NCBI GenBank assembly: GCA_965238055.1
Contig: OZ250178.1
Coordinates: 2,649,184 to 2,713,183, forward strand
Reading direction: 5' to 3'
Source of the DNA: Candidatus Foliamicus sp.
GTDB taxonomy: Bacteria; Pseudomonadota; Gammaproteobacteria; Steroidobacterales; Foliamicaceae
Length of the DNA stretch: 64,000 bases
Shown: positions 14,414-42,613 of the stretch, in pieces
Position numbering within the stretch: position 1 is the stretch's first letter
How the letters are laid out: each line of letters starts with the position of its first letter
Made by a program: the position numbers and the translations under genes
The notes under the pieces: generated by a model
What the model saw: the letters and a program-made list of their open reading frames with translations, nothing else
Database searches by the model: none
Told to the model about the DNA's origin: nothing

Positions 14414-14546
14414 GAGGGCGGGACGCCCTCGTTCCCAGGGAGGGCGGGACGCCCTCGTTCCCAGGGGAGGGCGGGACGCCCTCGTTCCCAGGGGAGGGCG
14501 GGACGCCCTCGTTCCCAGGGGAGGGCGGGACGCCCTCGTTCCCGGG
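14414..14546. repeat. Five tandem REP-like units (26-27 bp, no spacers)
   Basis: GAGGGCGGGACGCCCTCGTTCCCAGGG repeated five times head to tail. Confidence 0.95.
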
Positions 14547-19976: not shown

Positions 19977-20098
19977 GGAGGCGTCCCCCTGGGAACGAGG
20001 GCGTCCCGCCCTCGAAACGATCCCCTCGCAGGAACGAGGGCGTCCCGCCCTCGTCGAGAGCGAGACGCTCTCGCACCCAGGTAGGGCGTCCCTCCCTC
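19977..20098. repeat. REP-like cluster (about 4 copies)
   Basis: GGGAACGAGGGCGTCCCGCCCTC and GAGAGCGAGACGCTCTC variants. Confidence 0.85.
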
Positions 20099-25454: not shown

Positions 25455-26804
25455 CTACCGTTGCACCGACACGTAGGCGAGCCTGCCATTTCGCCCCGCC
25501 AGTGTCCGCGGATATTGGCGCGACGCACAGCTATTGCTCGAGGACCGATTGACCGGGATCCGAACTACCGGTAGTGCGTCGTTGGAAAGCGTATCCAAAT
25601 CGTAAACGTCGTAAGCAAAGGTTTTTCGATTGCCGGAAAATGAGCGAAGAACCAGGAGTTCGTTGCCGTTAATTCGCTCCCCACTAACATTTCCAAGACC
25701 ATTGGGAACTGTTGCAGGATTCAAGAAGTCGCCCAGGCGTTCACGCTGCTCCTCATTGGAAACTGTTGGGAAGTCAAACACCGTCTCGCCCGTGTCGGCG
25801 TCAAGGACCAATAGTCTCCATTCTCTCCCGTCCCAGGTATGCGGCCGGCCTGAAGGACCTGTATCCAGCGTAAGCCAGGCGCCAGGGCTCCATACGCTGA
25901 TGCTCCAGTCAGGGATGTAGTAGGAGGTAACAAAGGACCACACATCCCTTGCCTTGCCCTCCGGCCACTCGAATTGCCGCTTCGCGACCGTGAATTTGGG
26001 CTGGTCCCTGTCAGACCTCTCATCTTCTACGAAGTAGCCTTCCGTCGAAGAAACCAGCACCGCCTCGTCTTGTCTTCTCTCTCTATCCTCGATCTTGATT
26101 TCTCTCGGCGCCCCGTTGCCTCCTGTCTTGTAGAAGTAGTGAGTCCCCATGCCCCCTTCATCGCCGGGACATCCGGGATCCAGATGCACTTCTGAGTAGT
26201 CCATCGAATAGCTAGCGCTATAACAGAGCTCAAGACCCCAGGACTTGAACGTTCTGCCGATGTCGTGGCGGTACTCTTTCCCCTGGTCAAGGTTTCGTAT
26301 CAGCAGATTGAATGAATCTGCCGTCACTGTCTCGATGGCGAAAAAGGACGATCCATCGGGAGCAATGCCTATGCGAACCACATCATGGTGCTCGTAGATG
26401 ACTTGCCCATCCAGAAAGATTACAGCCGGCTCCGGTGGCGGGGGAATTGTGCCTGCGGCTTTTGTCAAGACGCCTGTGAAGCCTGCCAGCAGGGAACCGT
26501 CAGCCCGCCGTCCAATTCCGTAATTGCTGGCGGAAAAGGACAAATCGCCGCCGTAGACAGGGCCGTTTCCATCCACTACCAGGAAGCGCGCCGCGCCCGG
26601 CTGGATAAGCACTACCACCGCTGCATCCTGGGCTGAACCTTCGCCTGTCCGCATTCGGCATTGCGGGTTATCGATTACCTCCTGCGGCGACAAGTCTGCG
26701 GCGGGCGCCAAGGACGGATCGCCGGCTGACGTAGCGCCCGGTTCGACTGCAGACACGCAAAGGGGCGCTACCAGTGCCAGAACGTAAGCTAAACCCAAGC
26801 GCAT
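25455..26804 (-). CDS. Hypothetical exported protein (beta-rich)
   Basis: MRLGLAYVLALVAPLCVSA signal-like start at 26804; the upstream ORF extension is REP-derived; no family recognised. Confidence 0.6.
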   Translation of the reverse strand: MRLGLAYVLALVAPLCVSAVEPGATSAGDPSLAPAADLSPQEVIDNPQCRMRTGEGSAQDAAVVVLIQPGAARFLVVDGNGPVYGGDLSFSASNYGIGRRADGSLLAGFTGVLTKAAGTIPPPPEPAVIFLDGQVIYEHHDVVRIGIAPDGSSFFAIETVTADSFNLLIRNLDQGKEYRHDIGRTFKSWGLELCYSASYSMDYSEVHLDPGCPGDEGGMGTHYFYKTGGNGAPREIKIEDRERRQDEAVLVSSTEGYFVEDERSDRDQPKFTVAKRQFEWPEGKARDVWSFVTSYYIPDWSISVWSPGAWLTLDTGPSGRPHTWDGREWRLLVLDADTGETVFDFPTVSNEEQRERLGDFLNPATVPNGLGNVSGERINGNELLVLRSFSGNRKTFAYDVYDLDTLSNDALPVVRIPVNRSSSNSCASRQYPRTLAGRNGRLAYVSVQR

Positions 26805-26883
26805 TTCGAACCCAGTCCGCGCCTCACTTCGCACTCTACCAGAGGCGTCTAGACCTACGCTATTGCCCCCCAACACGCTGTAA

Positions 26884-26941
26884 CCCCCGGGAACGAGGGC
26901 GTCCCGCCCTCGACGAGAGCGAGACGCTCTCGCTCCCAGGG
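26884..26941. repeat. REP/REPIN-like doublet
   Basis: GGGAACGAGGGCGTCCCGCCCTC GAC GAGAGCGAGACGCTCTCGCTCCC. Confidence 0.9.
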
Positions 26942-27077
26942 CCTGAAGGCTCTCCTGCACAGCAAAGACCACAATCGAAAATAACGCTGCGGCTGCGAAT
27001 CTCATGGCGACTACTCCTGCATCGAAGAGACTATAGGATACTCAAGGGAAGGAACACCAAGGGGAGAGGACCAAAAT

Positions 27078-28043: not shown

Positions 28044-29255
28044 TTACGAGTTCCAGCGGAAGATGCGGGCGGCGTAGCCGGTGCGGAACTGCGTGCGGTT
28101 GGCGGGGAGTTGGGCGAAGCCGTCGGTTTGGGCCAGCGAAGCGAAGTCACCGGAAGTGTTGGTTTGGCGCGGGTGGGCGAGTAGCTGGCCGTTCCTGTCG
28201 GTGGAGAGGCGCACGGGGAGGAACCAGGTCAGGTTGGGCTTGAAGGTCACTTCCTCGGTCAGCGCCGCGTGTTCGAAGCCAGCGGGCCCCGCGCCTTGTG
28301 CCTTGTTGAGCGCGGGTATGACGTAGCGGCGCAGGCACACCAGGCTGGAGACGGGGTTGCCGGGCAGGCCGAAGATCGGTTTTTGGTCGTGCATTCCGAA
28401 CCAAAGCGGGAATCCGGGGCGCTGGCGGATGCGGTGGAAGACGGGCTTTGCGCCGAGTTGAGTCAGGACGCCGGGGACGTAGTCTTTCGCGCCTTTGGAG
28501 ACGCCGCCGCTCAAGATCAGCGCGTCGTTCCGGGTTAGGACTTCGCGGATTCGCCTGGCGAGTATTGTGGGGTCGTCGGGCGCGTGAATTGCGGTGACGT
28601 TGCCGAATCCATGGTGCTGGAGCTGGGCCGACATGGCGGGGCCATTGCTGGAGCGGATCTGCCAGCTCTCCGGGCGGGAATCCAGGCCGACGAGTTCGTC
28701 GCCGGTGGAGACAAGGGCGATGCGGGGATCGAGGCCTACTTGTGGTTTCGCTACGCCGTTTGCGCTAAGCAGTGCCATTTCGACGCCGCCGATGCGCTGG
28801 CCGGCCTTGAGCAGCAGGGCGCCGGCGCGTCGGTCGGAGGCTTGCTTGTGAATGAACTGGCCGCGCGTGGGGCGATACTCGTCGGCGATGCGTACGCCGC
28901 CTTTGGTCTCAGTGATTCGTTCGACGGGCACGACCGTATCGGCGCCTCCGGGAAGCGGTGCGCCGGTGGCGATTCGCCAGGCTGCGTGGGCACTGGATAG
29001 TCTGGCAGGGGCCTGGCCGGCGCTTTGTATTCCCTCCAAGGCGAATTCCCGCTGACCGGCGGACCAGGTGCGCCAGCGCAATGCAATCCCGTCCATGGTG
29101 GCGCGGTCGTACGGCGGCAGGTCGCGTTCGGCCAGCACGTTCTGTCGGAGCATGCGGCCTGTCGCGGCTTGAAGCGAGACTCGCTCGGCCGGCCAGAGTG
29201 GCGCCGTTTGCTGGATCAGGCGTTCGGCCTGGGCGACAGTCAGGTTGGTCTGCAT
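28044..29255 (-). CDS. moeA: Molybdopterin molybdotransferase
   Basis: PPYDRATMDGIA, IATGAPLPGGADTVVPVE, STGDEL, SGGVSKG, GLPGNPVS, SGDFASL. Confidence 0.95.
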   Translation of the reverse strand: MQTNLTVAQAERLIQQTAPLWPAERVSLQAATGRMLRQNVLAERDLPPYDRATMDGIALRWRTWSAGQREFALEGIQSAGQAPARLSSAHAAWRIATGAPLPGGADTVVPVERITETKGGVRIADEYRPTRGQFIHKQASDRRAGALLLKAGQRIGGVEMALLSANGVAKPQVGLDPRIALVSTGDELVGLDSRPESWQIRSSNGPAMSAQLQHHGFGNVTAIHAPDDPTILARRIREVLTRNDALILSGGVSKGAKDYVPGVLTQLGAKPVFHRIRQRPGFPLWFGMHDQKPIFGLPGNPVSSLVCLRRYVIPALNKAQGAGPAGFEHAALTEEVTFKPNLTWFLPVRLSTDRNGQLLAHPRQTNTSGDFASLAQTDGFAQLPANRTQFRTGYAARIFRWNS

Positions 29256-29270: not shown

Positions 29271-29364
29271 CCCCCCGGGAACGAGGCCTGGGAACGAGGG
29301 CGTCCCGCCCTCGACGCTGGGAATGAGGGCATGCAGCCTTTCTCGAGGGCGAGACGCCCTCGTT
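29271..29364. repeat. REP-like cluster
   Basis: Several complete and partial GGGAACGAGGGCGTCCCGCCCTC copies plus GAGGGCGAGACGCCCTC. Confidence 0.85.
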
Positions 29365-29402
29365 TGTCTGTTGTAATGAAGCCACCCTCGGCGCCCTCAA
29401 AG

Positions 29403-30330
29403 TGCCGAGGGTGGCGGTGAACAGGAACACGATGAACAGGTAAATCGCGGTGGTTTGGGCACGCATGGATGGCGGCGTGAACAACTGCAGCGTCATGACG
29501 GCCGGCGGGAACACCCAGCTGCCAAAGAAAAGCAATGGAGCGTAGAGCATCAGGGAAATTGTCGGGTTGGGCATGAGAGTGGTGACTGCTGCCGTCGGCA
29601 ACAATACGAACGCGGCCACCATGGAGGACCGGATCGTGCCGCCACGGTCGCCAAGGCGGTGTCGACTGTCCGCATACATGCCTCCGAAGATGGACCCGAA
29701 GCAGCCGAAGATCCCTACGACCAGCCCCAATTGCAGGCCGACCGTGATCCTGGGAAGCTCGTGTATGCGGATGAAATACTCCGCGCCCCAGATGAGGACC
29801 GCGTTGAACAGCAGCGAGAGCATGCAGAACGCGGCGACGAGATTGCCGTAGATGGCAATGTTGTCCCACAGGAATTTCAGCAATTCCCGCACCGTCACGC
29901 CGCCTTCAACGGCGCCGTGACGCGCAGGTTCGCGGATGGTCATGCACAACAGGGCGATGACAATGCCGGGCAGGCCCACCAGGATCAGCGTGAGTTGCCA
30001 GGCGGCAAGCTGCCCGACCAGGGGCAGTTCAAGCGGCGGCCTCTGTTCCAGCGTGCCGACCAGCGCGCCTCCCAGGATTTGGCTGAGCCCGAAGCCCACG
30101 AACAGGCCGGTCTGGTAGGTGCCGAGCGCGCGGCCAACCTTGTCGCGGGGGAACAGGTCCGTGATCAGCGAATAGGCTGCAGGCGCCAGTGCTGCCTCTC
30201 CCACGCCGACCCGGGCAATAAACAGCTGGCCGAAGCTCCGCGCCAGGCCGCACAAGGCTGTCATCAGGCTCCAAAGGAAGATTCCGGCGGATACGATATT
30301 GCGCCGGTTGTTGCGATCCGCCAGCCGGGC
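29403..30330 (-). pseudogene. Internal fragment of an MFS (spinster-like) transporter, both ends missing
   Basis: RLADRNNRRNI..GEAALAPAAYSLITDLFP..RAQTTAIY. There is no start, and the first and last helices are absent; both ends abut REP-like sequence. Confidence 0.8.
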
Positions 30331-30350
30331 GACGCCCTCCTGCCCCGGGG

Positions 30351-31058
30351 TCAGGGGAAATGGAGTTCTATCTTGCCGTGTTTGCGGAATGCGGCGGCGA
30401 CGCGGTCGTATACGACGCCTACGCGGATCACGGTGAAGTCGCGGAAGTCGATGATGGTGCTGGAGTGCCCATCCGGGTTGGCGTACCTGGAAACCCCATA
30501 GTCAAAGTGCACGCTGGCCGCCTTGCGCACCGGCGCCTCGATGTCTTCGTAGCGGTATCTCGAGCCCTTGAGCGAGGTGTTCGCCGACGAGCCGAACACG
30601 GGCATTCCCCGTCCCCAGGACTGGCGTGCGATCTCGTCGTGAAACTGCCCGGCATTGAGCAGCATGTCCAGCGTCCCGGCCCTGGTGGAGGATTGCATGA
30701 CGAATGGATCTACTTCGGCGAAAAAGCCATGGTCCGCGTCGAACGGCGCCACGATCGAAAACGGGATCTTCTCCTCGCGCGCGATAGTTTCCGCCAGGTC
30801 ATGCTTCCAACCCTCCATGACGTGGATCGCGCGGCTGACTTCCACATTGGCGAACAGTCCCCCGGGCTTCTCGTAGCTTCGCTTCTTGGCGGCGTAAATG
30901 CGGCGTATGCCGGCCTCGGTGCAGGCGTTGATGGCATACGCCACGTCCAGCGGCGCGATCGCGGCCTTGCCGGCGGCGATCGTGTCCAGCAGCAGGGAAA
31001 CGTCCGCGCGCAACTGCCCGGCCGGAACCGGATCAGCGGTGGTGCGTTCTTTTTTCAT
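30351..31058 (-). CDS. Divergent YrdC/Sua5-like protein
   Basis: AKKRSYEKP (KxR), FGSSANTS (SxN) and SSTIIDF are retained; the PTETVYG motif is replaced by PLDVAYA. Confidence 0.7.
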   Translation of the reverse strand: MKKERTTADPVPAGQLRADVSLLLDTIAAGKAAIAPLDVAYAINACTEAGIRRIYAAKKRSYEKPGGLFANVEVSRAIHVMEGWKHDLAETIAREEKIPFSIVAPFDADHGFFAEVDPFVMQSSTRAGTLDMLLNAGQFHDEIARQSWGRGMPVFGSSANTSLKGSRYRYEDIEAPVRKAASVHFDYGVSRYANPDGHSSTIIDFRDFTVIRVGVVYDRVAAAFRKHGKIELHFP

Positions 31059-31066
31059 GAGCGAAG

Positions 31067-32440
31067 TTAGCAGCGGAAGGGTGCAAGAAGTGGGTCAATT
31101 GAACGAAGTTGGCGTAAATTCCCCAAGATAGCAAGAACCTCGGCGCCGTCAATGCCGTTATCTCCGGCGATCAGACCGTCAAACTTCGCGAGCAGCTCCT
31201 GGCGATGCATGGGCTTGGCCGGCGTGCCCAGGCTATCGAGCGAGTCGGCCCTGCGCTTGCCATCGCTGGTCTTGAGCTCCACCCAGCTTCCGAAGTGCTC
31301 CGGGAAAGCCTTCTGCATGGCCGGGTCGGCGACTGCTTCCACCCGGCCGGCAATTGCCAGGGTGCGGACGTCGGTAAGCGCGTCGCCCATGAATCCGGCA
31401 AGGGAGCGTGGCCCATAGTAGAGTGCCGCGCCGAGCGTAAACGGAAGGCTGTATTGCGCGGCCATTTCGGATGTGGGCCGGCGCAGCATGTGCTGGCTGA
31501 CCATGATGTCGGGCCCGCCTACCAGGATCGATTCGATTTTGTCCGGTTCCAGGTTGAAGTTGCCGGTAACCTCGGCCAGCGCGTCCAGCGTGGAGTGAAA
31601 CAGCCGGCAGCAGGGGTAGGGCTTGAAGCTGATGCGGTGGATCTCCGGGCCGCCCGGGTGAGGGCGGTTCAGCCGTTCCGGGGCGGAATTGGCGCCGAAA
31701 TTTCTGATCAGGCCGTAGCGGCCTTCCAACGCCTGCTCAGGCCCGGCGATGCCGAGGTCTGCGTGTTCCGCGGCCATGACGCCGTGCAATGCGGCATAGC
31801 CGCCATGGAGACGCTTGACCGTGGCGCCTTCGGGTTCCTGGCTGAACTGCATCGAACCGCCGGCCATCGACAGCACCAGGCCCCAGCCCCGCGCAAGCTG
31901 CCGCGGCGAGAGCTGCAAAAGCACGCCCGCTGCCGCCGCCGCGCCGAAGCCGACAAACAGGCTGGTGGGATGAAAGCCCCGCTCAATCGTCTCGGCGGCA
32001 TTGGTGGCCGCGCCCACGCGGCCGACCGCCTCGTAACCGGCATGGATTGCTGCAGCCATGCTTTGACCGCCGAGGCCGTGATGGGCGGCCAGCGTCAGAC
32101 TGGATGCGATCACCCCGGCGCCCGGATGGCTAACCGATTCATCGTGGGTATCGTCAAGCTCCAGGCCATGGGCGGATGTGGCGTTGACGAACGCCGCCAA
32201 TGCCGGCGCCAGACGCGTTTGCGATGCCAGGAGCGGGGCGTTGCCGGTGCCGGCGTGCGCCGCTACCCACTCCTGCAGCCGCCGTCCCCATGCCAGTTGC
32301 GAGCCGGCATTGCAGCAGCCCAGGTGGTCGAGAACCAGGTTCTGGATTTGCTCGAGATCGCGTTCGCTCAACGGCGTATCGCCGAGCGCCAGGAGTTCTT
32401 CAGCCAGCGCCAGGCTGCGCCCGTTTTCCGCAACGCTCAT
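31067..32440 (-). CDS. MmgE/PrpD family protein
   Basis: AHGLELDDTH..HPG, GFHPTS, KRLHGG, FKPYPCCR.FH, AQYSLPF. Confidence 0.9.
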   Translation of the reverse strand: MSVAENGRSLALAEELLALGDTPLSERDLEQIQNLVLDHLGCCNAGSQLAWGRRLQEWVAAHAGTGNAPLLASQTRLAPALAAFVNATSAHGLELDDTHDESVSHPGAGVIASSLTLAAHHGLGGQSMAAAIHAGYEAVGRVGAATNAAETIERGFHPTSLFVGFGAAAAAGVLLQLSPRQLARGWGLVLSMAGGSMQFSQEPEGATVKRLHGGYAALHGVMAAEHADLGIAGPEQALEGRYGLIRNFGANSAPERLNRPHPGGPEIHRISFKPYPCCRLFHSTLDALAEVTGNFNLEPDKIESILVGGPDIMVSQHMLRRPTSEMAAQYSLPFTLGAALYYGPRSLAGFMGDALTDVRTLAIAGRVEAVADPAMQKAFPEHFGSWVELKTSDGKRRADSLDSLGTPAKPMHRQELLAKFDGLIAGDNGIDGAEVLAILGNLRQLRSIDPLLAPFRC

Positions 32441-33759
32441 GCTGCAGTTTCTCCTTTTAACACTGCTTCAGTCGTACTCGCCGCCGCGAGCACGCGCATG
32501 TCGGAGAAGCGCGCGCCGACAAGCTGCACACCGACCGGCAATCCTGCGGGCCCCCTGAATCCCGGCACGGTCACGCACGGCATATGCAGCGCCGTGAACA
32601 GCCGGTTGAACGTCGCCTCGCCGTTGCCGTCCTTGCGCAGCGGCGCTTCGCCCGGCGCCGAGGGTGAAAGCCAGGCATCGAAGCCTGCAAGGCGGTCGTC
32701 GTATACCGGCCGCAAGCGCCCGATGCCGTCGTAGGACTCCGCCATCAGCGCCGGCGTGATGTCGCGATTGACCTCGACCTCTGCCACGATGTCCTCGTGC
32801 AGGCCCATCTTGCCGGCGCCGTACTCGGACAGCAGCGAGATCCGCGCCTCGCCGTGCATGATCACGTCCTGCCACTCGTTGAGGTTCTCGGACCCGGGAA
32901 TTTCAGCGACCGTTTCCACCCGGTGGCCGGCTGCGTCAAGAATCTTGGCCGCGGTTTCGACGGCCGATTGGCTGGCCGGTTCCGCCTCCTGCCAGTACGG
33001 GGTGCGGTAGAGGCCGATGCGCAGGCTTCGCCCTTCCTCCACAGGCTCCCAGGTTCCCAGCTGCAGTACTTCCGCGGCACACGCCAGCAGCGCCACGTCT
33101 TCGGCCATCCAGCCCACCGTATCCAGGCTGGGCGCGTGCATCCACAAGCCCTGCACCGGCACGCGCCCGTAGGTGGGCTTGAAACCGGTCACGCCGCAGA
33201 ACGACGCCGGGCGAATCACCGAGCCGCCGGTCTGCGTGCCCAGCGCCAGTGGCGCCATGCCTTCGGCCACGCAAGCGCCGGAGCCTGCCGACGAACCACC
33301 GGGCGTGTGTTTCGGATTGTGGGGATTGGTAGTGGAAGGATCGCGGCCGACGCCGGCGAACTCCACGGTGGCCGTCTTGCCCAGCAGCACGGCCCCCGCC
33401 TGGCGCAACAAACGCACACAGGCCGCGTCCTGCTCCGCTCGCCGGCCTTCGTAGCGTGGCGAGTTGCGCTGCGTCATCAGGTCCGCGGTATCGATCACGT
33501 CCTTTACGGCAAACGGCAAGCCGTGAAGCGCGCTGCGCGCACCCCTTGACTGCCGCTCCCGGTCCCTGGCGCGGGCCGTGGCCAGTGCCTGATCGGCGTC
33601 GTAGTCCACAAACGCCCGCACCACCTGGTCTCGCTGCTCAATCCGCTCGACACACTGCCGGACCGCCTGCTCGCTGGAAAGCTCCCCGGACTGAAGCCGT
33701 GCTGCGAGCGAAGGCAGGCCGCTCCTGCCCCCTACACTGTTCACTGGATCAGCCAGCAT
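32437..33759 (-). CDS. Amidase-signature family enzyme
   Basis: VKDVID, HTPGGSSAGS, GTQTGGSVIRPASFCG. Confidence 0.9.
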   Translation of the reverse strand: MLADPVNSVGGRSGLPSLAARLQSGELSSEQAVRQCVERIEQRDQVVRAFVDYDADQALATARARDRERQSRGARSALHGLPFAVKDVIDTADLMTQRNSPRYEGRRAEQDAACVRLLRQAGAVLLGKTATVEFAGVGRDPSTTNPHNPKHTPGGSSAGSGACVAEGMAPLALGTQTGGSVIRPASFCGVTGFKPTYGRVPVQGLWMHAPSLDTVGWMAEDVALLACAAEVLQLGTWEPVEEGRSLRIGLYRTPYWQEAEPASQSAVETAAKILDAAGHRVETVAEIPGSENLNEWQDVIMHGEARISLLSEYGAGKMGLHEDIVAEVEVNRDITPALMAESYDGIGRLRPVYDDRLAGFDAWLSPSAPGEAPLRKDGNGEATFNRLFTALHMPCVTVPGFRGPAGLPVGVQLVGARFSDMRVLAAASTTEAVLKGETAA

Positions 33760-33955: not shown

Positions 33956-34372
33956 CTATAAACTCCTTTTGAAAGGATTGATGACCTTGAGGCTGGCGTA
34001 ATCCTGAGTGTCGCTGAAATCCTCTGAATAGACAGTGTCGCACCCAGAGGCCCTGGCCGCAGCGAGAATTGTGCAGTCCCAATAGGACAGGGCAAATTGG
34101 CTGCGAAACGCGAAAGCGTCTTCTACTATCGGCAAGCTGATTTCCTGTACCCGAAACCGCCGCATCGCCAATGCGAAGCTCACAGCTTCGGTATGCGTCA
34201 GGGCTCCAGGCCGTGTTGGCCTCGTTGCCTGGACGTAAAACTCCTGCAACACCTGGGCCGACAATGCCAAATCTCGCGACTCGAGTAGCGCAAGCGCTTG
34301 TCGGGACTTTGCCGCGTCTTCGGCTGCCGTGCTTACAGCGTAAAGAAGTACGTTGGTATCAACGAAGCGCAT
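33956..34372 (-). CDS. vapC: PIN-domain (VapC-like) toxin
   Basis: FVDTNVLLYA..LSAQVLQEF..SYWDCTILAAA..YSEDF. Confidence 0.9.
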   Translation of the reverse strand: MRFVDTNVLLYAVSTAAEDAAKSRQALALLESRDLALSAQVLQEFYVQATRPTRPGALTHTEAVSFALAMRRFRVQEISLPIVEDAFAFRSQFALSYWDCTILAAARASGCDTVYSEDFSDTQDYASLKVINPFKRSL

Positions 34373-34622
34373 CGCGGTCGTGCAGGGCTTCTCGATGGAG
34401 ATTGTCGATACTGCTCAGACCGGCTCCTCGCTCCCTGATTGCGCGTAAGGTTTCATCCTGCAAATGCTTGAGTTGCGTGAATTCGTCCTCTTGCGAGCGT
34501 CCCTGTATGAGCGAAACGAGAAAAGACCTGACCAATGCGGAGACCGACGTGCCCACCTCAGCGGCCTTGATTTTGGACCGGCGGTAGGTCTCGTCGTCAA
34601 TCGAGACAGTTATATTCTTCAT
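34359..34622 (-). CDS. vapB: RHH/CopG-type antitoxin
   Basis: MKNITVSIDDETYRR...SVSALVRSFL; overlaps the toxin start. Confidence 0.8.
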   Translation of the reverse strand: MKNITVSIDDETYRRSKIKAAEVGTSVSALVRSFLVSLIQGRSQEDEFTQLKHLQDETLRAIRERGAGLSSIDNLHREALHDRDALR

Positions 34623-34725: not shown

Positions 34726-35886
34726 CTAGCCCGCCTTCACTGGCCTGCCGCCCACCCAGGTCCCGTGCAGGACCATGTCGGCGTCCAGTTCGACCAGGTC
34801 GGCCACATATCCGGGGCGGATGAAGCCGCGTTCCTGGTCCACGCCGATTGCGCGTGCGGGGTAGCTGGAAGCCATTCGGACGGCCTCGGTCCAATCCAGT
34901 TCGGCCATGCGCATGGTGTTTCGTACCGCCTCAATCATGCTCAGGTTGGAACCGGCCAGGGACCCGTTCTCGTCCCTCAGCACCCCTTCTCGCAACTCAA
35001 CCCGTTGGCCGTAAAGGTTGAAGGACCGGTTTTCCGTGCCCACGGTGGCCATGGCGTCGGTGATCAGTATCGCGGCTCCCTGCTCGCGGGCGTGCAGTGA
35101 CAAACGCAGCAGGGATGGATGCACGTGCCGGCCGTCGGCAATGATGGTGAACACGCTATCGGCGGAATCCAGCGCCGCGCCGATAATGCCGGGGTCGCGG
35201 CCGGAAACCGCTCTCATTCCATTGAACAGGTGCGTAAAGCCGCTCAGGCCGGCCTCCAGCGCCGCGCGGCATTGCTCGTAGCTGGCCTGCGAATGACCGG
35301 CAAAGACCACAAGACCGGCCTCGCACAGGCGTTCGATGGTCTCCGGCGCAACCTGTTCCGGCGCCAGCGTTGTCAGCGTGACAAGGCCCGGACCCAGGGA
35401 AGTAAGGATCTTCAGGCCCTCGTCATCGATTTCCCGCACCTGCGAACGCTGATGGGCGCCTCTGCGGTCCGGGTTGAGATAGGGGCCTTCGAGGTGGATA
35501 CCAAGGACGCCGGAAACGCCGTCTCTGCTGGCCTGCCGTACGGCGTCGATCGCTGCGCGCATTACCGCGTCGTAATCACTGATGAGCGCAGGAAGAAAGG
35601 CCGTCGTGCCGAATCGCGCGTGTGTTGCGCCAATCACACGCAGCGTGTCCACCGTGGGCGAATTGTTGAACAGGACTCCGCCGCCGCCATTGACCTGCAG
35701 GTCGATGAAACCCGGCGCAAGCCGGCGGCCCTGGACATTGATCACGGTGTCCGCACCGCTTACCGGCCGGCCATTGGGGACCAGGTCGGCGATCAGACCG
35801 TCCTCGATGAGGACTGAACAGTCCTCGTGCACCTCCTCGCCGGTAAAGACAGTGGCGTTGACCAGCGCCGTGGTCTGATTGCCCAT
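34726..35886 (-). CDS. nagA: N-acetylhexosamine-6-phosphate deacetylase (NagA/AgaA)
   Basis: PGFIDLQVNG, GIHLEGP, AGHS, THLFNGM, IADGRHVH, LITDAM, LAGS; within the aga operon. Confidence 0.9.
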   Translation of the reverse strand: MGNQTTALVNATVFTGEEVHEDCSVLIEDGLIADLVPNGRPVSGADTVINVQGRRLAPGFIDLQVNGGGGVLFNNSPTVDTLRVIGATHARFGTTAFLPALISDYDAVMRAAIDAVRQASRDGVSGVLGIHLEGPYLNPDRRGAHQRSQVREIDDEGLKILTSLGPGLVTLTTLAPEQVAPETIERLCEAGLVVFAGHSQASYEQCRAALEAGLSGFTHLFNGMRAVSGRDPGIIGAALDSADSVFTIIADGRHVHPSLLRLSLHAREQGAAILITDAMATVGTENRSFNLYGQRVELREGVLRDENGSLAGSNLSMIEAVRNTMRMAELDWTEAVRMASSYPARAIGVDQERGFIRPGYVADLVELDADMVLHGTWVGGRPVKAG

Positions 35887-35899
35887 CCCGGCGCGCAGC

Positions 35900-38062
35900 C
35901 TACGCGCCGTTCCAACCGCAGTGCTGGGCGCCGACGATGGCCGCCCCTCTAACGGCGCTGGCGCCGCCGTACCTGCCCGGCGATATGATCGGAGGCTCGA
36001 CCCCGGACAGGAGATGTCCGGGCAGCACGCGAGGCAATCGCTCGTAAATTTCCGTGATGCCCGACAAGCCGCCGCCGATCACGATGATGCCAGGGTTGAT
36101 GTGCAGGACCATCGAAGCAAGGCAACTGGCCACGCAATCAATCCAGATATCGAAGGTCTCGGCGCAGGCTGACTCGCCTTTGCGCATGCCGCCGACGATA
36201 TCCACAACAGGCATTTCCGTTCCGTTCCGGTGCTTGTGGATACGTGACATCCCGGGGCCGGATACGTAACACTCTGCGCAACCGCTGGCGCCGCAGAGGC
36301 ACTCATACAGCGGCAGGTCGTGACGTTTGCGGACGCTTGCCGAGATCGGGATATGTCCCCATTCTCCGGCAATTCCATCCCGGCCGGCCTGCAATTGGCC
36401 GCTGATGCAGTAGCCGCCCACGGCGCCAGTGCCCAGGCTTGCGCCGATCATGCAATCGTGCTCCGCGGCGGCCCCGCCGTGCGCTTCGGACAACGCAAAT
36501 GCCCGCCCGTCGTTGATGATTGCAATCGGGCGATTCAATTCCCCGGCAAGGTCCGCCTTTGCATCCCGCCCCGTAAGGCAGGGCACGTTGACCGCGAACG
36601 ACTTGCCATGACGGTCAATAATGCCGGGCAAGCCGATGCCGACCGAGCCGTTGGCTTCAAACCGTTCATCCGCGTCGGCCACGAAGTCGCATATCGCCTT
36701 CAGAAACAGGTCGTAGTCGTCTGCAGGAGTCGGGGTTCGATGGGTGTGAAGGCGATTCAGTTTCGCGTCGAATACGCCGAATTCCATCTTCGTGCCGCCG
36801 ATATCCAGGCCATACAGCACTTCGGGTTCGCCCCGGCGTGACTTCTTGCCGGTCCGGTACGGGTAGATGGTGACGCCGCTTACCACCCGGTTAACCTCGC
36901 CCGTCGGGCACGGCGAATCAGCCTCCACGCCCAGCGCCATCGCCTTGTGGAACGCCAGCATCTGGCAATAGACGAGGTAGACCAGCGACAGCCAGGCGTC
37001 GTTCAGCTTAGGTGTCTCCCGGTCGCCGGGAGGCGCCTCCTTGCCCACCCTGGCCGGGCTTAGTTCGATAATGGCCGCAGATGCATCGTCTGCCTGCAAC
37101 TCCGCCAGCAGGTCCTGGTCATAGAGCCTGCTATGCGGGTCACCGGAACGCATCAAAACGACCAAGGTCGAATCATCGATGATGATCTTTGGCCCGTGCC
37201 GGAAGCCCAGCGGCGAATCGTGAATCGCCACCACCTTGCCCGCCGTCAACTCCAGGCATTTCAGCGCCGCTTCGCGGGCGGTCCCCAGCAGGCAACCGGC
37301 GCCCAGTATGGCAATACGGCGAAAACCGCATTGGGCGATGTTGGCGATGTCGGCGTTGCCGTTGACGAGCAATTGCCCGGCCCACTCGGCGGCTTCTTCA
37401 AGCTGCGCCCGGTCTGGCGTGAACAGGGCCAGGCACGACACCAGCATGGCCGTGTAGCTGCTGGTCATGGCGAAACTGCGATCGTTGGTTTCCGCCGGCA
37501 TCATCAGGCACAGCGCGTCATCGCGCCCTTTGGCTTCGCGGGCCAGGCGGCCTGCACGGTTGCAGGTCAGTATCAGGTGATGGCAGTCGGAGAGGAGCTC
37601 ATCGGCAAGCTCGACGCAAGCGACGCTCTCGGGACTATCGCCCGAGCGGGCGAACGAGACCATCAAGGTCGGAACGTCGTCTTTGAGAAATTGCGCCGGA
37701 TCGCTTGCCAGGTCTGTTGTGTGAACCGCTGCGATGCTCACGACCGTGTAGTTCATCGGATGCTTGCGTAACCATGCCGCAAGCGTTTCACCGATAAAGG
37801 CCGACGATCCGGCGCCGCACAGAAGGACTCGCAGTTGCGGTTTGGCGAGTACCGGCGTCAGCCAGGCGTCAATGGCTGGCCGCGATTCTTCTATGCGGGC
37901 ATAGGCCTTGCGCCAGGCCCGCGGCTGCTGGCAGATCTCGCGCGCGGTCCAAAGGCTGTTCCTGCGCTTTAAGGCCTCGCCATCCATGTCCAGATGCCGA
38001 TCCAGGTCCTGCATCCGTTTCCGTACGCGGCCGGGAGCAATGTCGTGCGGCTCGATTTCCAT
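35900..38062 (-). CDS. agaS: AgaS (SIS-domain galactosamine-6-P deaminase/isomerase) fused to a ROK-family sugar kinase
   Basis: N-half: TAREICQQP, GAGSSAF, SFARSGDSPES, FAMTSS, GFRHGPK, CPTGEVNRVV. C-half: YGLDIGGTK, NDGRAFALSE, GEWGH, C.CG..GC.E. The ATG 38062 overlaps the agaZ stop. Confidence 0.85.
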   Translation of the reverse strand: MEIEPHDIAPGRVRKRMQDLDRHLDMDGEALKRRNSLWTAREICQQPRAWRKAYARIEESRPAIDAWLTPVLAKPQLRVLLCGAGSSAFIGETLAAWLRKHPMNYTVVSIAAVHTTDLASDPAQFLKDDVPTLMVSFARSGDSPESVACVELADELLSDCHHLILTCNRAGRLAREAKGRDDALCLMMPAETNDRSFAMTSSYTAMLVSCLALFTPDRAQLEEAAEWAGQLLVNGNADIANIAQCGFRRIAILGAGCLLGTAREAALKCLELTAGKVVAIHDSPLGFRHGPKIIIDDSTLVVLMRSGDPHSRLYDQDLLAELQADDASAAIIELSPARVGKEAPPGDRETPKLNDAWLSLVYLVYCQMLAFHKAMALGVEADSPCPTGEVNRVVSGVTIYPYRTGKKSRRGEPEVLYGLDIGGTKMEFGVFDAKLNRLHTHRTPTPADDYDLFLKAICDFVADADERFEANGSVGIGLPGIIDRHGKSFAVNVPCLTGRDAKADLAGELNRPIAIINDGRAFALSEAHGGAAAEHDCMIGASLGTGAVGGYCISGQLQAGRDGIAGEWGHIPISASVRKRHDLPLYECLCGASGCAECYVSGPGMSRIHKHRNGTEMPVVDIVGGMRKGESACAETFDIWIDCVASCLASMVLHINPGIIVIGGGLSGITEIYERLPRVLPGHLLSGVEPPIISPGRYGGASAVRGAAIVGAQHCGWNGA

Positions 38063-39363
38063 CAAGTAATGTTCCTGCATGCCCTGGAATACGCGGAGGT
38101 CACACGAAGTATGTTGTGAATGACCAGTTCGCGCGGCTTCGCCGCGAGATGTCCTGCGCTTACGGCATTGTATTGATCGGGTAAGTGCCGGCTAAGCAAG
38201 GCCGGGGGAATTTCGATATCGGAAAGGTTGGAAAACAGGCGTTCCACCGCCTCGGTAACCGCGGGATGGCTCCAGTAATAGCGAATCCGGTCGCTGTAAC
38301 TGTGTTGCCGGTACCAGGCTGCTTCAGGTTCCTCGGCGGGGTAGTGCCGGATCCAGTGCTCAGGGTCCGCCTGCATGACTTTCTCGCAGACTGACGGCAG
38401 TCCGGAGGCTGTATCGCCGCTGAGCAATTCATCCTCGATGGCGCTCAGCGCAAACAGGGCCTCGCGCAGGGCGAAGGTGAGCTGCGGTCCCACCTTGAGA
38501 ATCGCAAAATGATCACGAACCAGCGCGCGGCAGCACTCTTCCGGCTGGTAGTCGGTGGAATGCGCTTCAAAAACCATGCCCGGGAGGCTCTCGAGGGCGG
38601 CGCTCAGCCCTTCGGCGTGACGCGGCTCATAGGGATGGACCGAGTCGTGATCGAACTCCACGCCGGGTTGTACGACCAGCCCGATGACGCGTGGCCACAC
38701 GGCGGCCAGTCCCCGGGCGGCAAAAGCCATCTTGTGTATTGCCGCGGTCCGCACGGCATTCTCCGGGCAGGTAATCTCAAGGCGATGGATAGACTCCCGT
38801 GCACCTCCCGGCGTCGGCACTTCCGTGCCGACCACGTAGACCGGACGGGCCCCGTCAGCACGCTGCCCTGCGGCTTCCTCGGCTGCCTCACAGAGTTGCG
38901 CCGCGCGCATCGCCACGATTTCTTCGCCCAGCGGTTGGGAGTCGTCGGCGCACGGCATGCTGGTGTCCAGATGCAGCTTCAGAAACCCTGCTTCGACGTA
39001 AGCTTCGATCAACTCGCGCGCCATGGCCATCGCCTGTTCCGCGGGTTCGCCGGTCCAGCAGACCGGGCCCAGGTGATCGCCTCCCAACACGATGCTGTCA
39101 ACGGGCAGGCCTGCACGCTCTGCGATCGCGGCCACGTAAGCCGGAAAGTCCGAAGGTTGCAGGCCCGTATAGCCGCCGAACTGGTTGACCTGGTTGGCGG
39201 TCGCCTCCAACAGCAGCGGGACCTTGTCCTTTTTCGCCTGCCGCATGGCTGCTTCCAGCGCCAGCGGGTGAGCGGTGCAAACGGAATACACGCCCAGGGC
39301 GTTGCCGCTTCGGTTGCGGCGCAACACCTTGAGAACCTGGTTCAGCGCCTTGCCGCAGGTCAT
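38062..39363 (-). CDS. agaZ: AgaZ/KbaZ/GatZ-family tagatose-6-phosphate epimerase (aldolase chaperone)
   Basis: GVYSVCTAHP, EATANQVNQFGGYTG, GGDHLGP, FEAHSTDYQ, YSDRIRYYW; ATG 39363 overlaps the permease stop. Confidence 0.9.
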   Translation of the reverse strand: MTCGKALNQVLKVLRRNRSGNALGVYSVCTAHPLALEAAMRQAKKDKVPLLLEATANQVNQFGGYTGLQPSDFPAYVAAIAERAGLPVDSIVLGGDHLGPVCWTGEPAEQAMAMARELIEAYVEAGFLKLHLDTSMPCADDSQPLGEEIVAMRAAQLCEAAEEAAGQRADGARPVYVVGTEVPTPGGARESIHRLEITCPENAVRTAAIHKMAFAARGLAAVWPRVIGLVVQPGVEFDHDSVHPYEPRHAEGLSAALESLPGMVFEAHSTDYQPEECCRALVRDHFAILKVGPQLTFALREALFALSAIEDELLSGDTASGLPSVCEKVMQADPEHWIRHYPAEEPEAAWYRQHSYSDRIRYYWSHPAVTEAVERLFSNLSDIEIPPALLSRHLPDQYNAVSAGHLAAKPRELVIHNILRVTSAYSRACRNIT

Positions 39364-42529: not shown

Positions 42530-42613
42530 CCCCCGGGAATGCTCGCGTCCCGCCCTCCCCCTGGGAATGAGGGCGTCCCGCCCTCCCCCTGGGAATGAGG
42601 GCGTCCCGCCCTC
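42530..42613. repeat. REP-like cluster (3 copies)
   Basis: GGGAATGAGGGCGTCCCGCCCTC variants. Confidence 0.85.

Follow-up and report, generated by a model that had tools for sequence, protein, structure and literature searches.

The stretch of DNA analysed here (the window) comprises 64,000 nucleotides of the genome of Candidatus Foliamicus sp. (contig OZ250178.1, positions 2,649,184 to 2,713,183), and its minus strand carries at 30351-33759 three tightly linked genes for an amidase, a protein of the MmgE/PrpD family and a divergent protein of the YrdC fold. The interpretation that we favour, with a probability of roughly 0.55, is that this locus is a deletion-trimmed remnant of a conserved island for amide or ureide catabolism, in which the YrdC-like protein would be an ATP-binding enzyme different from TsaC. 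The operon as it stands in the window is the product of two deletions with mapped breakpoints, and the adjacency of the amidase gene and prpD is secondary. The deletion origin with its breakpoints, a residue-level comparison with TsaC, a quantified gene neighbourhood, fusions to hydrolases and the recurrence of the three genes in an independent lineage are new in this analysis.

Two deletions produced the locus in the window

An original prediction made from the sequence had proposed three linked genes here, and the list of open reading frames (ORFs) of the 64-kb window indeed contains amidase, MmgE/PrpD and YrdC-like frames at exactly those coordinates, each assigned to its family with Pfam. 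The features of the locus are the following:

32437..33759, minus strand: amidase-signature hydrolase, malonamidase-E2-like, 440 aa (PF01425, 249 bits)
31067..32440, minus strand: MmgE/PrpD-family protein, 457 aa (PF03972, 153 bits; PF19305, 84 bits)
30351..31058, minus strand: divergent YrdC/Sua5-fold protein, predicted non-TsaC paralog, 235 aa (PF01300, 25.1 bits)
32437..32455, minus strand: deletion junction 1, amidase 3' end joined to the last hyuB codons (comparison of amidase and hyuB C-termini)
30325..30350, minus strand: deletion junction 2, just past the yrdC-like stop, with half REP-like site GAGGGCGTC (homology break against relative L003)
29359..30333, minus strand: MFS permease fragment, probable pseudogene (tblastn to L003 MFS2)
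29296..29361, no strand assigned: two REP-like (repetitive extragenic palindrome) hairpins GAGGGCG-NNN-CGCCCTC between the MFS fragment and moeA (sequence)
28044..29255, minus strand: moeA, molybdopterin molybdotransferase (MoeA_N, MoCF_biosynth, MoeA_C)

The amidase and prpD genes overlap by 4 nt, the stop of the first lying over the start of the second, and the yrdC-like gene starts 8 nt past the prpD stop. Downstream, the locus is anchored by moeA, which is conserved and syntenic in the relatives (71-81% identity) and lies outside the system. Scans for promoters and terminators gave background levels only, and NCBIfam contained no equivalog for any of the three proteins. The plus-strand ORFs across the same DNA had no family matches and are antisense shadows of this region of 63-68% G+C.

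Gene neighbourhoods were compared in 80 species-level loci, 19 of them gammaproteobacterial and 61 alphaproteobacterial or other. ORFs were called and clustered, the clusters were named by Pfam and NCBIfam, and the families were recounted by six-frame hidden Markov model searches, as plain ORF calling overlooked the yrdC-like gene in 14 loci. The 19 gammaproteobacterial species are represented mostly by sponge-associated metagenome-assembled genomes (MAGs), Ca. Foliamicus among them. Upstream, these relatives carry the amidase, then a PrpD2 paralog on the opposite strand or a 258-aa ORF, followed by hyuA, hyuB, prpD and the yrdC-like gene; past the latter come a TonB-dependent receptor, an MFS permease, a 256-aa ORF or glyoxalase-like gene, a second MFS permease and moeA. 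PrpD was counted in all 19 loci, HyuB in 18, MFS permeases in 17-18, and a TonB receptor together with MFS permeases downstream of the yrdC-like gene in 17. The amidase was found within 8 kb in 15 of the 19, where it sits at the edge of the examined flank, and an isochorismatase-like gene in none of them. The HyuA and HyuB proteins of the relatives matched best the caprolactamase alpha (595 bits) and beta (249 bits) models, under the 1000-bit equivalog cut-offs; the TonB receptor is siderophore-receptor-like (TIGR01783, 167 bits, below cut-off) and the MFS genes belong to the anion:cation symporter type. Many alphaproteobacterial loci, like the outgroups L020 and L021, carry hyuAB adjoining the yrdC-like gene. 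As the full layout is common to the outgroups and the hyuAB-yrdC linkage extends to the Alphaproteobacteria, this layout can be taken as ancestral.

Therefore, the three-gene operon does not hold as a conserved unit: amidase, prpD and yrdC-like genes are contiguous in none of the 80 other loci, and hyuA-hyuB intervenes between amidase and prpD in 18 of the 19 relatives. HyuAB, the transporters and the isochorismatase-like partner of the Alphaproteobacteria, all absent from the earlier description, characterise the system better than the amidase.

The first deletion removed about 5.3 kb between the amidase gene of the window and prpD, a segment that carries prpD2 or the 258-aa ORF, hyuA and hyuB in relatives (prpD2, hyuA and hyuB in L003, whose amidase is 85% identical to that of the window). 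The window amidase ends in ...LKG-ETAA, its stop overlapping the prpD ATG; in the relatives the amidases end in ...EKG or ...AKG, and it is hyuB that ends in ...GETA(K), with an ATGA overlap onto prpD. The amidase terminus in the window is thus chimeric, having taken its last four codons (ETAA) and its translational coupling to prpD from hyuB.

The second deletion, of about 4.7 kb, removed the TonB receptor, the first MFS gene (MFS1), the 256-aa ORF and 54 codons from the start of the second MFS gene (MFS2). Homology to the L003 yrdC-like gene stops at the stop codon, and homology to the interior of L003 MFS2 resumes about 25 nt further on, after the half REP-like site. The remaining MFS fragment corresponds to residues 55-381 of the 420-aa protein of the relatives (73% identity); its MFS_1 match begins at model position 77, both its 5' and 3' ends are absent and its open frame continues into moeA. 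Two REP-like copies and the half-site flank this fragment. The window contains the hairpin 18 times, where 0.05 occurrences would be expected, and REP-like hairpins are spread over 10440-60031 (for example at 19997-20052 and 42569-42613), including a tandem array of five copies at 14414-14537 with 26-27 bp spacing.

The window therefore lacks the HyuAB ring-opener and the uptake genes and contains a remnant, not a complete island. Neither hyuAB nor the TonB receptor has an ortholog elsewhere in the source genome, whose three other HyuB-family genes are just 28-39% identical to those of the cluster and in which the PrpD-like protein is the sole member of the MmgE/PrpD family. A separate HyuA/HyuB pair (L090, G000:C1:2754934-2761640) lies about 42 kb past the window end and about 2.4 kb from an isochorismatase-family gene; it is 28-37% identical to the genes of the lost cluster and may belong to an N-methylhydantoin (creatinine-type) route. 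The same genome also encodes a fused 1220-aa HyuA-HyuB protein and a third HyuA/HyuB pair. Trimming was not confined to this genome, as relative L006, the sister of L009 with its full island, independently retained prpD and the yrdC-like gene alone, beside moeA. As the complete same-genus genome G016 has no YrdC-like paralog, full, trimmed and missing versions of the island all occur in a single genus.

The YrdC-like protein as a predicted paralog of TsaC

The YrdC-like protein matches Sua5_yciO_yrdC (PF01300) over model positions 3-178 with 25.1 bits, exactly the Pfam cut-off, and TIGR00057 with 32.7 bits against an equivalog cut-off of 123.2, this match being confined to the C-terminal 70 residues. 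Its AlphaFold2 model is confident (predicted local distance difference test score, pLDDT, 95.1; predicted template modelling score, pTM, 0.92), and Foldseek matched it with probability 1.0 to 3L7V, Sua5, TsaC2, HypF, YrdC and YciO. The best match was 3L7V (template modelling score, TM, 0.75), which also ranked first by sequence when solved structures were compared (E 1e-7). Pyrococcus abyssi Sua5 and Thermotoga maritima TsaC2 (TM 0.70-0.72) came next, and then HypF, YrdC and YciO.

Residues were mapped by profile-profile alignment of 56 family members with 13 canonical TsaC sequences, together with the invariant columns of the family. The motifs noted earlier in the translation, APLDVAYA where TsaC has PTETVYG, AKKRSYEKP (KxR) and GSSANTS (SxN), occupy positions that agree with this alignment. 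In Sua5 of P. abyssi, the ATP tetrad K56xR58/S143xN145 and the threonine-binding T33, S181 and R195 are all required for the synthesis of threonylcarbamoyl-AMP (TC-AMP), which is abolished by mutating T33 (PMC10321239). The tetrad is present in the YrdC-like protein as K58xR60 and S158xN160, and S200 and R212 are the equivalents of S181 and R195, all six residues being invariant in the 56 members. The T33 position is occupied by an invariant leucine (L37, in PLDVAYA). This combination suggests that the ATP site and the carboxylate clamp were retained and the side-chain pocket was altered. Other invariant polar residues are His79, His110, His140, Asp131, Asp186 and Asn194, and a conserved insert specific to the family, with invariant His and Asp, spans residues 99-140 approximately.

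A canonical TsaC is encoded in the same 3.39-Mb genome (G000:C1:1275353-1275871, 125.5 bits), 1.4 Mb from the window copy. In 16 of 18 same-genus genomes, a strong match to TsaC (65-133 bits; in two pieces in G018) accompanies the weak paralog (23-33 bits). The complete genome G016 keeps TsaC and has no YrdC-like paralog, and in one genome that is 66% complete the paralog alone was detected, so that canonical TsaC was found in 17 of the 18. Given the separate canonical TsaC, the score far below the equivalog cut-off and the replacement of the threonine-binding residue, the YrdC-like protein is, as judged from its sequence, a paralog and not the housekeeping enzyme of N6-threonylcarbamoyladenosine (t6A) synthesis. 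These same three observations support the altered, repurposed YrdC fold proposed at the outset insofar as the protein is not the housekeeping enzyme. The invariant residues and the confident fold model indicate that the protein is still likely an enzyme.

That it could be a second, redundant L-threonylcarbamoyl-AMP synthase for t6A, with incidental catabolic neighbours, appears very improbable. Such a role would fit the complete KxR/SxN tetrad with its S181 and R195 equivalents, the TsaC/SUA5/YrdC names given to homologs in several databases and the trace synthesis of TC-AMP in vitro by the paralog YciO (PMC12506659). Against it stand not only the low TIGR00057 score and the invariant leucine at a position essential in Sua5, but also the presence of canonical TsaC in nearly every carrier genome examined, the loss of the YrdC-like gene from G016, which keeps TsaC, and a catabolic context conserved across 80 species. 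A YciO-like role in RNA binding was considered and rejected, as the isoelectric points of the family range from 4.9 to 8.9 and show no conserved basic character, which is weak evidence against it.

The family comprises 1,123 matches in a large protein collection, with 57-84% identity across Gamma- and Alphaproteobacteria; among the matches listed, one member comes from an Acidobacteriota MAG. Cultured carriers are Hoeflea sp. CAU 1731 and Aquibium sp. A9E412. The ESM Atlas returned generic YrdC names only, and our literature search found no paper on this subfamily. The published similarity network of PF01300 shows TsaC and YciO only, its small clusters being hidden, and the KxR/SxN tetrad is the filter used for TsaC/Sua5 in the literature (PMC10321239).

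Gene neighbourhoods in other lineages

Across the 80 loci, the YrdC-like family was embedded in clusters for amide and ureide catabolism, in line with the context first suggested for the window. Among the 61 alphaproteobacterial and other loci, 48 have an isochorismatase-family gene after the yrdC-like gene, on the same strand and within 3 kb, and in 29 of the 31 called pairs the stop of the first and the start of the second overlap or lie at most 30 nt apart. An amidase was counted in 29 of these loci, HyuAB in 23-24, dihydropyrimidinase in 19 (a genuine one, with 596 bits against a cut-off of 393), PrpD in 16 and uracil phosphoribosyltransferase (UPRTase) in 14. Also recurrent were PrpB-like and HMGL-like lyases, CoA-transferase III, acyl-CoA dehydrogenase and enoyl-CoA hydratase, importers of the tripartite ATP-independent periplasmic (TRAP, DctPQM) type, ABC binding proteins and TctC, and regulators of the GntR/HutC and LysR types. 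No Kae1/TsaD-type gene was found among the recurrent neighbours in the 80 loci. Group F of the alphaproteobacterial loci has PrpD, YrdC-like and isochorismatase-like genes without hyuAB.

A compact marine layout is present in the alphaproteobacterial loci L035-L041, L056, L060, L068, L075 and L079. It consists of a short-chain dehydrogenase/reductase, UPRTase, the YrdC-like and isochorismatase-like proteins, a 357-aa protein without family match and an AtzE-like amidase, followed by a 157-aa protein, an enoyl-CoA hydratase and a GATase. This layout hints at a pyrimidine-related substrate.

Fusions to hydrolases were also found. In an alphaproteobacterial MAG, the YrdC-like and isochorismatase-like proteins are joined in frame in a protein of 502 aa (L071:7848-9353, plus strand), and in a cluster of 18 member sequences from freshwater and soil metagenomes (P0124, loci L105 and L106) an N-terminal 4HBT hotdog thioesterase domain is fused to the YrdC-like domain in a protein of 388 aa. 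Candidate PrpD-YrdC fusions were rejected: the middle part of the 609-aa protein P0123 is garbled and rich in Arg and Pro, probably because of a frameshift in the gene call, so that the protein counts as adjacency only, and the open frames of 609 and 722 aa in G014 and G015 are chance alternative frames over prpD.

The scan for the sister subfamily fused to the hotdog domain (about 42% identical) also located a metagenomic contig (L110) with the order HyuA, HyuB, TctC, an ORF, amidase, PrpD and YrdC-like, followed by LysR, CobW, a dihydropyrimidinase-like protein, an NMT1-type binding protein, a 2-oxoglutarate oxygenase and an isochorismatase-like protein. The amidase of L110 shares 43% identity with that of the window along the entire protein, and its gene overlaps prpD by 4 nt; for PrpD the identity is no more than 26%. 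In locus L109, the amidase directly adjoins the yrdC-like gene. The three genes thus recur in an independent lineage, and the deletion in the window recreated the same compact order. As this distant lineage natively has the amidase-PrpD-YrdC order, the three genes would be functionally linked. Their co-conservation, proposed on the basis of the window, holds in part: amidase, PrpD and YrdC-like proteins co-occur in 19 of the 80 loci and are contiguous in L110, but in none of the 80.

The amidase and the PrpD-like protein

The amidase matches PF01425 over its full length (249 bits, model positions 2-445), and the Lys, Ser-Ser and Ser motifs of the amidase signature are seen in its translation as AVKD, GGSSAGS and TGGSVIRPA. 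Its best NCBIfam amidase model scored 235 bits against a cut-off of 532, and its closest solved structure is malonamidase E2 (E 3e-65, full length). The PrpD-like protein contains both MmgE_PrpD_N (153 bits) and MmgE_PrpD_C (84 bits). Its best NCBIfam match, NF042438, reached 27.7 bits against a cut-off of 950 (458 for TIGR02330), and it therefore appears to be a member of the MmgE/PrpD superfamily and not a PrpD equivalog. The closest solved structures are those of iminodisuccinate (IDS) epimerase (6e-29) and then cis-aconitate decarboxylase.

State of the remnant

All three frames in the window are full length, and both the invariant residues of the YrdC-like protein and the amidase motifs are intact. 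The proteins are 72-85% identical to their orthologs, similar to the neighbouring moeA (71-81%); at an identity of about 82% between orthologs, synonymous sites would be saturated. Within the genus, no terminal branch in a tree of PrpD and YrdC-like proteins is longer than that of the window (0.25; median 0.059). Unique changes at columns that are invariant in the other sequences are likewise most numerous in the window, with 13 of 446 in PrpD and 7 of 232 in the YrdC-like protein compared to 4 of 372 in moeA, although this excess is weak. Branch length and singleton substitutions together hint at relaxed constraint. With ring-opener and uptake genes deleted, the three proteins could either act only on a downstream intermediate or be heading to loss.

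A decaying, non-functional relic, left without substrate once ring-opener and importer had gone, is a possibility to be taken seriously, if an improbable one. It is supported by the loss of hyuAB, prpD2, the TonB receptor and MFS1 and the fragmentation of MFS2, with no orthologous hyuAB elsewhere in the genome, and agrees with the long branch, the slight excess of unique changes at invariant columns and the complete disappearance of the YrdC-like paralog from the same-genus genome G016. It fits poorly with three intact frames, preserved catalytic motifs and an ortholog identity on a par with that of moeA. L006, which kept exactly prpD and the yrdC-like gene when the rest was lost, and the group F loci, with PrpD, YrdC-like and isochorismatase-like genes and no hyuAB, likewise argue against it.

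Proposed function of the island

According to the interpretation favoured here, the island would import a carboxylated cyclic amide or ureide, whose ring would be opened by the ATP-dependent HyuA/HyuB pair. The malonamidase-like half-amidase would then release ammonia, and the PrpD-family enzymes would rework the resulting polycarboxylate. The YrdC-like protein, most likely an ATP-binding small-molecule enzyme to judge from its conserved residues, would adenylate an intermediate at a carboxy or N-carboxy (carbamate) group, in concert with the hydrolase or PrpD partner encoded next to it. Enzymes of the HyuAB type use ATP to open lactam or hydantoin rings. The proposed route is suggested by this activity, by the relatedness of the amidase to malonamidase E2 and of the PrpD-like protein to IDS epimerase and cis-aconitate decarboxylase, and by the carboxylate-type transporters. 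Of the pathway proposed originally, for an amide- or carbamoyl-containing organic acid, the amide/ureide catabolic context stands. Gene content, paralogy, fold, conserved residues, neighbourhood counts and both deletions are what the analysis shows; the class of substrate, the sequence of the steps and the adenylation by the YrdC-like protein are what we infer.

Two more specific ideas can be formulated. The YrdC-like protein might trap the labile N-carboxy (carbamate) or carboxylate product of the adjoining or fused hydrolase (amidase, isochorismatase-like or hotdog) as an AMP-anhydride, in the manner of the second half-reaction of TsaC, which would make it a new catabolic adenylating enzyme; this is unlikely as it stands, but if true, AMP-anhydride capture would add to the degradation of ureido or cyclic-amide polycarboxylates a step coupled to ATP, absent from described pathways. 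In the version of the sponge symbionts, with its siderophore-type TonB receptor, the substrate could be a lactam-bearing polycarboxylate such as a siderophore of the vibrioferrin type.

Several points weigh against the interpretation favoured here. The YrdC-like family, on which no paper was found, has no member with a known substrate, product or activity. To our knowledge, all characterised YrdC-fold enzymes pass their adenylate to a Kae1/TsaD-type partner, and with no such acceptor among the recurrent neighbours the fate of the putative adenylate is unexplained; adenylation beside a hydrolase could even be futile. Since the neighbourhoods mix enzymes of pyrimidine type (UPRTase, dihydropyrimidinase) with CoA-ester enzymes and a siderophore-type receptor, more than one class of substrate may be involved. 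In the window itself, devoid of hyuAB and importers, the three proteins may be non-functional, and PrpD and the YrdC-like protein carry the highest numbers of lineage-specific changes at otherwise invariant columns, in weak excess.

The missing acceptor, together with the translational coupling or fusion of the YrdC-like protein to its partners, would also suit a non-catalytic subunit that binds a ligand or serves as a scaffold in a complex with the PrpD-like protein or a hydrolase, or a regulator that senses nucleotides. Acetone and acetophenone carboxylases, which are relatives of HyuAB, do carry extra small subunits. Nevertheless, we consider such a role quite unlikely, because the invariant full ATP tetrad and the carboxylate-binding Ser and Arg argue for catalysis, the invariant His79, His110, His140, Asp131 and Asp186 suggest an active site and the family persists without hyuAB.

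Nor is it to be expected, except with a very small probability, that the island is biosynthetic, producing for example a polycarboxylate siderophore or a secondary metabolite through ligation or cyclisation by HyuAB and the YrdC-like protein with ATP. The siderophore-receptor-like TonB receptor with its sub-cut-off TIGR01783 match, the MFS genes and the two ATP-using enzyme types would fit such a role. However, the recurrent uptake systems (TRAP DctPQM, ABC, TctC) and the GntR/HutC and LysR regulators are typical of degradation, as are dihydropyrimidinase, amidases, CoA-transferase, acyl-CoA dehydrogenase and lyases, and genes for nonribosomal peptide synthetases (NRPS), NRPS-independent siderophore synthetases or polyketide synthases were not recurrent in the 80 loci.

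Other features of the window

Directly upstream of the amidase, a PIN-domain toxin gene (33956-34372, minus strand) is overlapped by a gene for a small FitA-like ribbon-helix-helix antitoxin (34359-34622, minus strand). Beyond it, at 34726-38080 on the minus strand, lie a NagA-like amidohydrolase of 386 aa and then a 726-aa fusion of a SIS domain with a ROK-family kinase/regulator, an unusual architecture. A 516-aa ORF at 25455-27005 (minus strand) had no Pfam match.

Significance

YrdC-fold enzymes are known to us only from t6A synthesis in tRNA and from the transfer of carbamoyl groups when hydrogenases mature or antibiotics are tailored. With a conserved and widespread branch of more than 1,100 sequences from marine and soil Proteobacteria, tied to amide and ureide degradation, the range of the fold would come to include catabolism, and this branch points to an ATP-dependent step still without assignment. 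As its members pass the KxR/SxN filter and are frequently named TsaC, the branch is also a warning for annotation. The two mapped deletions provide an example of a symbiont trimming a catabolic island, in which the prpD-yrdC pair was retained twice independently, and the cultured Hoeflea and Aquibium carriers make the question accessible to testing.

Comparison with known systems

With TsaC and Sua5, the YrdC-like protein shares the fold, the complete KxR/SxN tetrad and the equivalents of the carboxylate-binding S181 and R195. It differs from them in its low identity (17-20%), in the leucine at the T33 position, in coexisting with a true TsaC and in its catabolic context without a TsaD/Kae1 partner. 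The motifs AKKR..KP and SSAN.S.G are shared with smu.1377c of Streptococcus mutans (3L7V), which is uncharacterised and 18% identical, so that no annotation was transferred from it. The YrdC-like domains of HypF, TobZ, GdmN and NovN have the same fold and ATP site, with a weaker structural match (TM 0.40-0.62); these are always fused to a Kae1-like transferase, whereas proteins of the window type stand alone or are joined to an isochorismatase-like or hotdog hydrolase. As domains that form carbamoyl-adenylate, they set a precedent for the action of the fold on small carbamoyl or carboxy groups instead of threonine (PMC10321239).

The amidase resembles malonamidase E2 of Bradyrhizobium japonicum over its full length and in its signature motifs. 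Malonamidase E2 hydrolyses the mono-amide of a dicarboxylic acid, and a half-amide intermediate would thus fit the proposed route, although the match (E 3e-65) is too remote for the substrate to be transferred to the window amidase. A half-amidase step is also part of cyclic-imide catabolism; the biochemically described pathway known to us uses a metal imidase instead of HyuAB and has neither a YrdC-like nor a PrpD-like step. The PrpD-like protein has both Pfam domains of the MmgE/PrpD family, and its closest structures are those of IDS epimerase and cis-aconitate decarboxylase (CAD/IRG1). These enzymes and 2-methylcitrate dehydratase all use di- or tricarboxylates, but the window protein is an equivalog of none of the three.

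Among the ATP-dependent HyuA/HyuB systems (caprolactamase, N-methylhydantoinase and 5-oxoprolinase), the HyuAB proteins of the relatives match caprolactamase best, below equivalog level; the window itself has lost hyuA and hyuB. In the Alphaproteobacteria, HyuAB precede an isochorismatase-family hydrolase, as in the creatinine route, in which N-methylhydantoinase is paired with N-carbamoylsarcosine amidase, a member of that same family. What sets the HyuAB islands of the relatives apart from all these known systems is the yrdC-like gene intercalated in them.

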